A stretch of 64,000 nucleotides of DNA from a virus, in the IMG/VR virus record IMGVR_UViG_3300042863_003045, positions 38,657-102,656 of that record. One strand, 5' to 3'. The stretch's first letter is position 1. Each line of letters starts with the position of its first letter. Below are positions 651 through 58,337 of the stretch, one piece after another. Under the pieces are notes generated by a model. The model made no database searches. It had not been told where the DNA came from and worked only from the letters and a program-made list of their open reading frames with translations. The translations under genes were made by a program, and so were the position numbers.

Positions 651-1109
651 ATGAGATATTTAAAGACTTTTGAAAACTTTGATTTTGACTTTGATTCTAT
701 AGATTTAGATGAGTCAGAATATTTATATGTAGAAGATTCTCAAATTCCAAATGCCGGAAAAGGATTGTTTACATCAATTGATATAGAAAAAAATGAGATA
801 ATATCCAAATTCATAGGAGATATTTTATCAGATTATGAAGCAGATATCAGAGCTGATAGAGGTGATGATGATTATTTCATGAATTTACCATCTGGTGAAA
901 TATTAGATTGTAAATTATCAGATTGTTTTGCTAAATATGCCAATGATTCAGAAGGAATAAATAGTGGATTTAAGAATAATTCGTTTATTTCAATGGATGA
1001 TGAAGATAATGTTGTTTTGGTTGCTAAGAGAGATATTTCGGCTGGTGAGGAAATATTTGTTAGTTATGGAAAAAAATATTGGAAAAGAAATAAATATAGA
1101 ATAGTTTAG
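651..1109 (+). CDS. SET-domain protein (putative lysine methyltransferase)
   Basis: SQIPNAGKGLF, AKYAND, AKRDISAGEEIFVSYG motifs. Confidence 0.9.
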   Translation: MRYLKTFENFDFDFDSIDLDESEYLYVEDSQIPNAGKGLFTSIDIEKNEIISKFIGDILSDYEADIRADRGDDDYFMNLPSGEILDCKLSDCFAKYANDSEGINSGFKNNSFISMDDEDNVVLVAKRDISAGEEIFVSYGKKYWKRNKYRIV

Positions 1110-1112
1110 ATA

Positions 1113-1730
1113 ATGAGATATATAAAAAAATTTGAAAATTATAATAACAATTCAATACTAATAATTGTTGACGTACAGAGATCATTTCGATCATTCTTTA
1201 CAGAAATGTATATTCATAAATTAAAGGAATATTGCAAACAATTCACAGAAGTATATCAGATTTTCGATAACCATCATGAAGGCAAAAATGTTGATAAAGA
1301 TTATCTATATGATGATAATCCAGATATTCCAATCAGTGATGAACTCTATACATTTCCAAACCAAAAAGATATAATCGAAAAAAGATATAACTATGATGTG
1401 AATGTTGATTTTTATAAAAAAATCTTAGATAAAGAAACTTATAAAGAATCTAAAGAAAAAGAAGATAATAACACTTTAAAGAAAGGAGATTTGTTTAAAA
1501 CAACCGAGGGAACTGCAATAGTTTATATCGGGAATAATCATAATTGGTTTCATATTCCTAAAAAGCTTTATGAACTATTTTCAAATATTAATGGAAAAGA
1601 AATTGTGATTTCCGGAGGAAGTGATTCCGAATGTTTACAAGATATTTACATTTCTGCTAAATCGATGGGAGTTGATATTAAAAGAGATCATAGATTCATA
1701 TATTCTGCATCACATTGTCCTATAAGGTAA
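1113..1730 (+). CDS. Isochorismatase/cysteine hydrolase-like protein
   Basis: ILIIVDVQ N-terminal motif and SGGSDSECL putative catalytic Cys. Confidence 0.65.
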   Translation: MRYIKKFENYNNNSILIIVDVQRSFRSFFTEMYIHKLKEYCKQFTEVYQIFDNHHEGKNVDKDYLYDDNPDIPISDELYTFPNQKDIIEKRYNYDVNVDFYKKILDKETYKESKEKEDNNTLKKGDLFKTTEGTAIVYIGNNHNWFHIPKKLYELFSNINGKEIVISGGSDSECLQDIYISAKSMGVDIKRDHRFIYSASHCPIR

Positions 1731-1759
1731 TTTGAAAAATAAAAAATAAAATATATCAT

Positions 1760-2005
1760 ATGCCATCAAAATCAAAATCTCAACAACGTTTAATGGGAGC
1801 AGCTTACGCTTATGCTACTGGAAAAAACAAAGATGTTCCAGAAGAAATAAAAAATGTTGCTAAATCATTTATGAAATCTGGAAAAAAGAAAGGAAAAAAG
1901 GCTCTTAGAGATTTTGCCAAAACAAAACATAAGAGCCTTCCTGAGAAAATAAAAGAGAATTTTAATCACATATTATCATTTGATGATTTCAAATGTTCAG
2001 AATAA
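1760..2005 (+). CDS. DUF3008-like small basic protein
   Basis: MPSKSKSQQRLMG...DFAKTKHKSLPEK. Confidence 0.7.
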   Translation: MPSKSKSQQRLMGAAYAYATGKNKDVPEEIKNVAKSFMKSGKKKGKKALRDFAKTKHKSLPEKIKENFNHILSFDDFKCSE

Positions 2006-2154
2006 GAAATTGATTTATCAAATGATTCTGAAAGATAATCTGTATAAGAAATTGATTTATCAATGCTCTCAGAAATATATTCTGAATACTGAATCCGTTT
2101 TGAAAACTTTCTCTTTTCTTTGATCTTTTTTATACTATCCTTTAGATCATTCAT
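1966..2154 (-). CDS. 62-aa protein carrying scaffold-type 14-aa repeats
   Basis: ATG at 2154 overlaps the upstream stop; YSEYISESIDKSIS repeats. Confidence 0.65.
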   Translation of the reverse strand: MNDLKDSIKKIKEKRKFSKRIQYSEYISESIDKSISYTDYLSESFDKSISYSEHLKSSNDNM

Positions 2155-2806
2155 CAATTGTCTCTGTGTTTGTTGGTAGAACTTCAGCCATAAGGAGATC
2201 ACTTCCATCTAAAGTAAGTGCCCATTTTTGAATATCTTCTACCAAAGACTTTGCTTTTGCGTCATAATAGTTGATTATCTTAGAAGCATCTCCGATTCTA
2301 TTTAGAAGTGAAGCAAAAGTACGAGCTTCTTTTGTAAGACCTTTTACTTTATAACCTTGTATAAGATGATAAACATATGTCAATTCGGTTGCATTCATCT
2401 TAACCGCGACAAGCTCACTATCATTCTTAAATTTAGTGTCGTATATAGACTTTAGCATATTATCCAATTCCAATGCCACAAAAAGTGTATTAACATCAAA
2501 TTCTAATTTTTTCAACAATAAATCACTAAGAAGATTGTATTGTGGTCGATTAAAATAGAAATTGAATTTTGCTTCTCTAAGCTCATTCTTATAATCTACA
2601 TAAAGTGATTGAGCATTTGCATAAATCAAATCCTTCTCTATATCACTCATTCCAACTCCATTGTTGTCACTCATGTATTTTTCTACAGATTCCATTTTAG
2701 AATCTAGACTAGATTCAACATCAAAATCCATTATTCTAAACATTTCTTCATTTTCAAAGAATGTCAACTCTGGTTTATTCACTACATTTTCAAATTTTTC
2801 TTTCAT
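2147..2806 (-). CDS. Hypothetical protein
   Basis: 219-aa ORF within a minus-strand operon. Confidence 0.8.
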   Translation of the reverse strand: MKEKFENVVNKPELTFFENEEMFRIMDFDVESSLDSKMESVEKYMSDNNGVGMSDIEKDLIYANAQSLYVDYKNELREAKFNFYFNRPQYNLLSDLLLKKLEFDVNTLFVALELDNMLKSIYDTKFKNDSELVAVKMNATELTYVYHLIQGYKVKGLTKEARTFASLLNRIGDASKIINYYDAKAKSLVEDIQKWALTLDGSDLLMAEVLPTNTETIDE

Positions 2807-57263: not shown

Positions 57264-57316
57264 AAAACAAATTTGTGAGTTTAATATATAATATATATAT
57301 TTGTATAATCAAAAAC

Positions 57317-57687
57317 GGGGACGAAATGTATTGATTCGGAGTTGTTGGAGATAGTTAGGCAAGTATCGGTTTGTTAGTATCCGATTAAAACAAATTGACA
57401 AACAACGCAAACGGCAACGTTTCAAACGAAGTAGGCACCAGTGAAGATTTAGTAGCTGCTCTACAAAACAACATGCTCACTGTAAGAGAGCTTGAAGTAG
57501 CTTAATTGAAACTTCATAAAAACTTACACTGAATCACAACAGTTAAAAATAGTGATAGTTTTTTGTTGATTTCTTATGAGTAAAAGAAATCAAATATTTT
57601 GTCAGTTTAGAAAAACATGACTAAGCTTGTAAACGACTGATTATAGTCACCTCAGGAAGAAGAGGATTCGCACCCTCCGTCTCCACT
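57317..57687 (+). ncRNA. ssrA: tmRNA
   Basis: 5' GGGGACG pairs with 3' CGTCTCC-A including a G3:U wobble; TTCG T-loop-like arm; internal tag ORF 57407-57505; promoter upstream and terminator downstream. Confidence 0.85.
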
Positions 57688-57690
57688 AAT

Positions 57691-57719
57691 AAAAAATCCA
57701 CCTAAATGGTGGATTTTTT
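57691..57719 (+). terminator. Bidirectional intrinsic terminator
   Basis: aaaaaatccacc-taaat-ggtggattttt. Confidence 0.85.
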
Positions 57720-57722
57720 ATT

Positions 57723-58337
57723 TTATAATATTAGAATAAAGAAATCTTGAATGATTTCACCATTTATATCAATACGTTGATTTATTTTTTTATAATCTAC
57801 GTTGTTATATGATAAAAACAATTCATAAAATTTATCTCGTTTGTTATAATCTGCTTTCAATTCACTGCTTAAATCATTATCAATTGATTTAAAAATTATA
57901 TAATTTATTTTATGATATGAAACCATACTTTTAATTATATTGATTATAGTTGTTATTTTTCTAAAAAGTGTTTCATTATCATTGACATTTTTATCATAGT
58001 TATAAACACCATCTAAATATTCTCCAAATCCAACATATAGATATTTATCAGTGTGTTTATTAAATTGTAATAAATAATCACTCAACGTTTTATAGTTTCT
58101 ACCACCATTTACGCAAATAGTATCACTATCATTTATAATAATTGAAGAAACTATAACATCTCTTTTATCTATTTTAAAAGAAGAACATAAATAATCACCA
58201 GATTTATAAAGATTATTTTCAACACTATATGGAATTGAATTTCCTAATGATATCTCTTCTTTTATGTATTTTGATATATCAGAATAATCAAATTTTTCAA
58301 AATCATCACGATCTCCAAATGTTTTTATATATTTCAT
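57723..58337 (-). CDS. Hypothetical protein with shared N-terminal peptide
   Basis: Likely start MKYIKTFGD at 58337, preceded by AATATATA. Confidence 0.7.
   Translation of the reverse strand: MKYIKTFGDRDDFEKFDYSDISKYIKEEISLGNSIPYSVENNLYKSGDYLCSSFKIDKRDVIVSSIIINDSDTICVNGGRNYKTLSDYLLQFNKHTDKYLYVGFGEYLDGVYNYDKNVNDNETLFRKITTIINIIKSMVSYHKINYIIFKSIDNDLSSELKADYNKRDKFYELFLSYNNVDYKKINQRIDINGEIIQDFFILIL

Follow-up and report, generated by a model that had tools for sequence, protein, structure and literature searches.

In this article, I will discuss a short N-terminal peptide, hereafter the tag, that begins many otherwise unrelated proteins in 64,000 nucleotides of DNA from a T4-like phage of very large size that has not been cultivated (IMG/VR record IMGVR_UViG_3300042863_003045, positions 38,657 to 102,656; hereafter the window, i.e., the final 64 kb of a viral contig of 102,656 bp with a G+C content of 28.5%) and in related huge phages. 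That the tag is a real, selected and portable N-terminal module is, in my judgement, close to certain. That it is a portable address acting in the manner of phage T4's capsid targeting sequence (CTS), with both capsid targeting and processing, is the best-supported reading of the sequence, though one that I hold to be evenly poised; the tagged proteins would most likely be loaded into the capsid and trimmed, because the tag ends in a motif that the head protease appears to cut. The window contains 13 clearly tagged genes and three with diverged variants (Table 1), the whole 102.6-kb contig 23 among 122 genes, and the uncultivated huge phage LR745206 (635 kb) 124 among 942, i.e., the tag marks 13-19% of genes, or one in six to eight.

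A selected and portable peptide

When a broad regular expression of the motif reported in the preliminary description of this DNA was run over all six frames of the 102,656-bp contig, it gave 18 matches, each lying 0-9 codons past an in-frame stop. A position-specific scoring matrix applied to all 3,657 ATGs was bimodal, with 21 scoring at least 10 and the runner-up 6.4, and nearly all of those 21 are starts of open reading frames (ORFs). A hidden Markov model (HMM) of the tag, at a threshold of at least 8 bits, recognized 22 of 207 N-terminal Met peptides on the contig and 128 of 1,510 in LR745206, compared with 2 of 391 and 4 of 2,668 internal Met controls, respectively, and composition-preserving shuffles yielded 0.6 (contig) and 3.4 (LR745206) matches. 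The claim that many unrelated ORFs share an N-terminal peptide is thus borne out by all three approaches and their controls, and chance or an AT-rich start-codon context, the latter named beforehand in the preliminary description among the things that would overturn it, was checked and is ruled out by the internal Met controls, the shuffles and the position of the matches relative to stops. Among the starts listed there, 12 are strong (651, 1113, 8225, 25752, 30563, 36800, 41227, 41874, 43223, 43511, 53044 and 58337, at 13.7-30.1 bits), 26531 is marginal, and 18511 (PPK2), 31070 and 14821 are weak variants at 5.7, 4.4 and 3.5 bits, with homologues backing 18511 and 31070; only 19787 has to be given up, having no start codon on the + strand and reading on the - strand as a GTG start of 2.2 bits.

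The tag is 10-12 residues long with the consensus M1, K2, Y/H3, L/I4, K5, x6, F/Y7, and is short, basic and amphipathic in pattern, its logo turning polar after position 7. Position 4 is Leu or Ile in 130 of 147 tags and position 7 is Phe or Tyr in 129, both positions having low entropy in 120 orthologues, while the first Glu falls at position 8 (F-E-N/S), 9 (F-N-E-S) or 11 (K-I/L-F-E-S) in 123 of the 147. The residue that follows this Glu (P1') is Ser or Asn in 53% of cases versus 14% after Glu elsewhere (p = 1e-28). Synonymous codons inside the tag match genome usage, replacements within it are conservative (Y/H, L/I, K/R, F/Y), and the DNA upstream is unconserved except for an 8-9 nt promoter motif at variable distance; by these comparisons, selection acts on the tag at the peptide level and not on its DNA. 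The protein starting at 1113 kept its tag in 120 of 120 metagenomic orthologues, among which positions 3, 4, 5, 7 and 8 are conserved like the enzyme core and positions 9-15 are free to vary, and conservation of the peptide extends to relatives with only ~33% identity in the capsid protein. AlphaFold2, applied to this one protein, leaves residues 1-11 unstructured (pLDDT 38) and begins the fold at residue 14, which places the tag outside the predicted fold of the single protein modelled.

The tagged proteins are mutually unrelated, as first described: once the tag is removed, the 147 proteins fall into 130 blastp clusters, the largest with five members, and differ in their Pfam folds, and the 124 of LR745206 alone fall into 110. 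Pfam matches were obtained for SET, PPK2 and SAM methyltransferase proteins in the window, for NUDIX, GT6, galactosyltransferase, M15 peptidase, zinc protease, NFACT-R and methyltransferase proteins in LR745206, and for ankyrin, GNAT, LRR and methyltransferase proteins on IMG/VR contigs. More than 90% of tagged proteins have no Pfam match, and the earlier characterization of the cargo as modifying enzymes does not fit most of it, which has no assigned function; the observation that replication and NAD genes lack the tag holds. Tagged proteins are soluble (transmembrane-like segments in 3 of 124 versus 98 of 818 untagged), their genes are clustered (49 adjacent pairs versus 16 expected), and they are shared less often between the contig and LR745206 (7 of 23) than untagged genes are (59 of 99). 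Within the one family of the 31070 protein, members occur with a canonical tag, with a variant tag and with no tag.

The tagged genes also share a promoter motif. In LR745206, 46% of tagged genes have AATATATA in the 60 nt upstream, compared with 15% of untagged genes (p = 1e-13), and on the contig the shares are 57% and 21%, respectively, so the claim that most tagged genes follow a late motif is right about the enrichment and overstated in its "most", the motif being directly upstream in about 40-57%. The TAnnTTTG (Bacteroidota-type) element is rarer before tagged genes. Since AATATATA or a one-base variant also lies 20-50 nt upstream of protease, capsid or portal genes in most relatives compared, it can be taken as a morphogenetic promoter, presumably late, with "late" resting on the shared promoters; at the level of promoter motifs, then, tagged genes would be expressed together with head genes. 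The distance from AATATATA to the ATG is bimodal, either 3-5 nt or ~20 nt, and the short spacing, which implies leaderless or near-leaderless transcripts, is found at 93 genes across the contig and LR745206 (41 of the 71 motif-bearing tagged genes plus 52 untagged genes), including window genes 651, 18511, 30563, 41227, 41874 and 53044.

The head module and its precedents

The window encodes gp20-, gp21- and gp23-type head proteins (Table 1), although the PF03420 match of the protease (E = 1e-4, 22.2 bits) is below the curated cutoff of 27. Protease and scaffold form one fusion protein, in which the scaffold consists of some ten or more 14-residue repeats in tandem (YSEYIAENLDKNI). Most of the repeats contain an I-A-E-N candidate cleavage site, and as they are acidic they could serve as receptor of the basic tag. 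The fusion protein holds 15 [LIVFMY]xE[SN] sites, one in most 14-residue repeats, or 21.6 per 1000 residues compared with 3.9 in other proteins; the portal has none, and the capsid protein has only two candidate sites, VLEN at 18 and INEN at 41, both in the N-terminal propeptide, within the first 45 residues, and conserved in eight relatives. The alignment of these eight relatives further shows a conserved [LIV]-N-E-[SA] at the junction of protease domain and scaffold (LNES), I-V-E-N and L-N-E-N/S near the protease N-terminus (the window protease begins MKSVLIVEN), and L-F/N-E-S after the repeats. The SINEN of the capsid protein and the SLNEN and TLNES of the protease noted in the preliminary description are therefore present and conserved, and the end of the tag matches the hydrophobic-x-Glu-Ser/Asn motif of these putative protease-scaffold and capsid propeptide sites.

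In T4, the CTS is found on the internal proteins IPI, IPII and IPIII, on Alt and on gp24, where the gp21 prohead protease cleaves it off (Mullaney and Black, 1996, reviewed in PMC9026906, PMC5694885, PMC3012670); its residues 4 and 7 target, its residues 8 and 10 direct processing, and gp21, which itself carries LIE-9, cuts at L/I-x-E, fragments the scaffold and removes N-terminal propeptides (PMC9026906). The tag resembles it as a 10-12-residue N-terminal peptide on unrelated and fast-changing proteins, with hydrophobic or aromatic residues at 4 and 7 and a candidate hydrophobic-x-Glu cleavage site at its end, in a genome with gp20-, gp21- and gp23-type head genes and a site-rich scaffold, and in being expressed with the head genes (here by promoter motif). 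The T4 N-termini themselves are MNEPQLLIE for gp21 and MLKEQLIAE for gp22, and KWKPLLEGEG of gp23 parallels KWTPVLENMG of the window capsid protein. The differences are that the consensus here is different and basic, that the distance of the Glu from residue 7 is variable and Ser or Asn follows it, that protease and scaffold are one polypeptide, and that the tag sits on 13-19% of genes where T4 uses its CTS on about half a dozen proteins; the putative cargo here is mostly acidic and includes SET, PPK2, methyltransferase, GNAT, NUDIX, ankyrin and LRR proteins.

Other systems invite comparison as well. The giant phages phiKZ, 201phi2-1 and SPN3US possess a gp21-related protease that cuts after Glu and package and eject dozens of proteins, with propeptides of 80-130 residues, the motif S/A-x-E and no shared short tag (PMC5694885, PMC7411985, PMC10052503). 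They resemble the phages discussed here in being large and encoding a gp21-related protease, whereas this clade combines a T4-like head module with a common 10-12-residue tag. Encapsulin cargo-loading peptides and the encapsulation peptides of bacterial microcompartments likewise use a short terminal peptide and a variable linker to send unrelated enzymes into a shell, which in encapsulins has the HK97 fold; however, these peptides stay uncleaved, the shells contain no DNA and the cargo is never delivered to another cell. A search of the open-access literature turned up the CTS work on T4 and giant phages but nothing that describes this tag for huge phages.

The steps of docking, packaging, cleavage and injection, which I infer from sequence, would run as follows. 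AATATATA promoters would drive tagged genes and head genes alike, and the hydrophobic and aromatic tag residues 3, 4 and 7 would dock the tagged proteins onto the prohead core, the candidate docking partner probably being the repeat scaffold fused to the gp21-like protease. Once the shell is closed, the protease would cut after the tag Glu (hydrophobic-x-Glu, then Ser or Asn), freeing the mature protein within the head, from where it would enter the next host along with the DNA. The bolder version of this reading, which I put forward tentatively and would sooner bet against, is that phages of this clade load more than 100 different pre-made proteins (13-19% of genes) by means of one tag docked on the scaffold and clipped by the protease, so that infection opens with the delivery of a large and fast-evolving effector set. 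That such a set would comprise SET, GNAT, methyltransferase, NUDIX, PPK2, ankyrin and LRR proteins together with many unknowns is equally conjectural, as is the consequence that no bacterial virus would be known to package a protein repertoire even nearly as large.

Weighing the explanations

What speaks for capsid targeting, as already proposed in the preliminary description, is an N-terminal, portable and peptide-selected tag, a T4-type head module, a shared terminal motif and the head-gene promoter; what does not stand is a detectable similarity to T4. The tag HMM gives no more than 2.4 bits on the N-termini of T4 gp20, 21, 22, 23, 24, 67, 68 and Alt (IPI-III were not among them), and the likeness to T4 is therefore one of layout and not of detectable homology. 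Several further points also weigh against capsid targeting. With 124 or more tagged proteins per genome, the number far exceeds every packaged set known. About one-third of tags have Glu8 with Thr or Lys at P3 (K-T-F-E-N), off the T4 L/I-x-E rule, and tagged proteins are acidic (median pI 4.8 versus 5.7), which is awkward beside densely packed DNA. Glycosyltransferases and an M15 peptidase that could be an endolysin have no obvious need for injection. Exact tag cores number zero in LR756501 (735 kb), which has diverged variants only though its head module is similar, and zero in Lak-B5, and the exact core is absent from the five cultured relatives PTm1, PAU, MA9V-2, MaF61 and pT24. A weak additional hint of exposure to the protease is the depletion of [LI]xE in the bodies of tagged proteins (observed/expected 0.93 versus 1.145 +/- 0.05 in resampled untagged sets); it is only suggestive, because depletion of the motif restricted to Ser/Asn at P1' is not significant in the same bodies, and the [LI]xE depletion could come from structural class.

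The rival that deserves most attention, unlikely as I find it, is that the tag is a signal for a partner other than the prohead, e.g., a chaperone, an unfoldase or protease timing turnover (a degron), a membrane or other assembly site, or a modifying enzyme. A short, basic, amphipathic-patterned peptide that is unstructured alone would suit such a role, the glycosyltransferases and M15 peptidase could act in the producing cell, and the absence of the tag from relatives with the same head protease family means that the head module alone does not require it. However, no alternative partner was found, and this explanation leaves unaccounted for both the occurrence of the tag-end motif in the scaffold, the protease junction and the capsid propeptide and the promoter shared with head genes. 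Two of its forms can be set aside. A secretion signal is rejected, the tag having no hydrophobic core and tagged proteins being poor in membrane segments (3 of 124 with transmembrane-like ones), and so is a leader recognized by radical-SAM enzymes, whose gene counts show no correspondence with tag counts: LR756504 combines 33 tags with no radical-SAM genes, while the 735-kb phage has nine such genes and no exact tag.

An account in which the conserved start is a late-gene expression element, acting as mRNA or nascent peptide, for instance in translation initiation on leaderless or near-leaderless transcripts, would fit the 41 of 71 motif-bearing tagged genes in which AATATATA ends 3-5 nt before the ATG, and probable hosts among the Bacteroidota, which make little use of Shine-Dalgarno sequences. 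I nevertheless consider it improbable, because synonymous sites are free (codon use follows the genome and amino-acid replacements are conservative), 52 untagged genes share the spacing and the Glu is kept; moreover, about two-thirds of tagged genes do without that spacing, the head genes use the promoter without the tag, and such an element gives no reason for a Glu followed by Ser or Asn. Least credible of all, and in my view scarcely tenable, is that the likeness reflects common descent or DNA copying, either of one expanded paralogous family or of a mobile promoter-plus-leader cassette. The clustering of tagged genes in 49 adjacent pairs versus 16 expected and a few small paralogue groups, the largest cluster having five members, are what one would cite for it, but 130 clusters with different Pfam folds among 147 proteins rule out a single family, and the cassette is rejected on the free synonymous sites and on upstream DNA that is unconserved beyond the 8-9 nt motif at variable distance.

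Tagged genes, relatives and meaning

Table 1. Head-module genes and tagged genes of the window, with tag HMM scores.
Product	Tag	Coordinates	Strand	Bits	Remarks
gp20-like portal protein		37684..39372	+		PF07230, E = 4e-54
S77 gp21-like prohead protease fused to repeat scaffold		47175..49265	+		PF03420; tblastn hits annotated "prohead core scaffold and protease"
gp23-like major capsid protein		49307..51064	+		PF07068
208-aa protein	MKHIRKFENY	1..576	+	21.8	start and tag 50 nt before window, contig position 38606; LR745206 orthologue also tagged
SET-domain protein	MRYLKTFENF	651..1109	+	28.3	PF00856, E = 5e-14; SET from residue 36
Cysteine-hydrolase/isochorismatase-like fold	MRYIKKFENY	1113..1730	+		weak fold match; fold from residue 14
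87-aa protein	MIKRFKEFNES	8225..8488	+	13.7	internal ATG of longer ORF 8195; orthologue found
89-aa protein	MDNLKGFSEFNL (doubtful, diverged)	14552..14821	-	3.5	AATATATA upstream
PPK2 polyphosphate kinase	MRIFNYKIFNES (variant)	18511..19623	+	5.7	PF03976, E = 5.6e-78; domain from residue 133
107-aa protein	MKHLKTFENF	25429..25752	-	30.1	top score of window
97-aa protein	MEYLLEFNEFINEE (marginal)	26238..26531	-	8.3	weak DUF5872 match
165-aa protein	MKHLMRYEGF	30563..31060	+	21.9	LR745206 orthologue tagged
257-aa protein	MKLFRYKNFIKES (variant)	31070..31843	+	4.4	earlier labelled LRR
62-aa protein	MRHIRPFKEN	36800..36988	+	19.0	
SAM-dependent methyltransferase	MKYVKKFEEF	41227..41859	+	25.3	domain from near residue 46
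163-aa protein	MKYIKKFEINES	41874..42365	+	26.3	
79-aa protein	MKHIKKINEF	43223..43462	+	25.4	
143-aa protein	MQHLKLFENF	43511..43942	+	23.1	
165-aa protein	MKHIKTFKIFES	53044..53541	+	27.1	
204-aa protein	MKYIKTFGDR	57723..58337	-	19.9	start probably at 58337, not upstream TTG at 58511

The enzyme labels first given to these proteins mostly survive, with SET, PPK2 and SAM methyltransferase recognized by Pfam and the cysteine hydrolase drawing weak fold support, whereas LRRs are undetected by Pfam in the 31070 protein of the window. The variant tags are best read beside their homologues. PPK2 has a 130-residue N-terminal extension and its LR745206 orthologue shows MPVYNFHKFINEE at the aligned start, while for the 31070 protein the homologues L028 and L082 have the canonical MKYLKKFNES and MKHLKTFNES in the corresponding position and one LR745206 homologue is untagged. 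The NFACT-R RNA-binding protein of the window (54368-54757) starts MIKGKVIFES, scores 3.1 bits and has no full tag, while its LR745206 orthologue scores as tagged, which implies gain, loss or decay of the tag within one orthologous group. Perfect tags also begin two ORFs of only 20 and 11 codons in L001 (6253 on the - strand, MKHLKLYEDFISKLF..., and 3197 on the + strand, MKYIKKINQHS), which look like remnants of decayed tagged genes, and a tag-like peptide, MKYKKYLKYFES (12.9 bits), is found at window position 56856, 452 codons into the 579-residue ORF 55524-57263, where it may mark an internal start or a gene fusion or be due to chance.

The cysteine-hydrolase/nicotinamidase-like protein at 1113-1730 has 1,157 metagenomic homologues in which Asp20 and Cys174 are invariant; a PDB sequence search with it gave no match, and a fold search only weak isochorismatase/cysteine-hydrolase matches. 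It may belong to NAD metabolism, because the genome carries NAMPT and NMNAT-Nudix genes. These two stand in the window together with genes for a UvsX-like recombinase, a clamp loader and DNA polymerase B. Five large DUF7487 paralogues, an expanded family of which some members also have an MTES_1575 restriction-endonuclease-like or Mom-like domain, are encoded at 43939-45519 and 45506-47050 of the window and at 10994-12703, 13954-15612 and 15667-17391 of L001. Pfam searches with eight tagged proteins of the upstream contig and several large neighbours annotated almost nothing.

The closest records to this DNA are the uncultivated huge phages LR745206 and LR756502 (642 kb), at ~66-70% protein identity, next to which come LR756504, LR756501/3 (735 kb) and LR756500; remoter relatives include the Lak phages and, among cultured jumbo phages, PTm1, pT24, MA9V, MaF61 and PAU, whose hosts are Bacteroidota and Sphingomonas. 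The hosts are probably Bacteroidota, given the TAnnTTTG promoters and the closest cultured relatives, which are phages of Tenacibaculum, Chryseobacterium and Flavobacterium. In the window, TAnnTTTG elements lie upstream of 21926, 25884, 40889 and 61704, before NAD-salvage and other untagged genes. Counts of the exact tag core are 53 in LR745206, 33 in LR756504 and 13 in LR756500, compared with 0-2 for a reversed control pattern. A scan of IMG/VR with a back-translated pattern of MK[HY][LI]Kx[FY]NES found at least 119 loci with the tag pattern, nearly all of low G+C, and 89 of the 128 IMG/VR matches listed begin no more than 12 codons after an upstream stop. The IMG/VR contigs sampled are fragments, 12-68% complete, and a gp23-like capsid gene exceeds the Pfam cutoff in four of ten.

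If capsid targeting is the correct reading, a sizeable share of the "dark" genes in the largest known phages would have found its purpose as a delivered toolkit that acts before phage gene expression, and a simple sequence rule would suffice to list that toolkit in metagenomes. The CTS principle, which T4 applies to a few internal proteins, would here cover one gene in six to eight, and the scaffold with its 14-residue repeat would be a candidate for a multivalent receptor. A natural and short tag that probably removes itself would also become available for packing foreign proteins into large capsids. Should packaging prove wrong, a peptide found on more than 100 unrelated proteins would still represent an undescribed sorting system in these phages.

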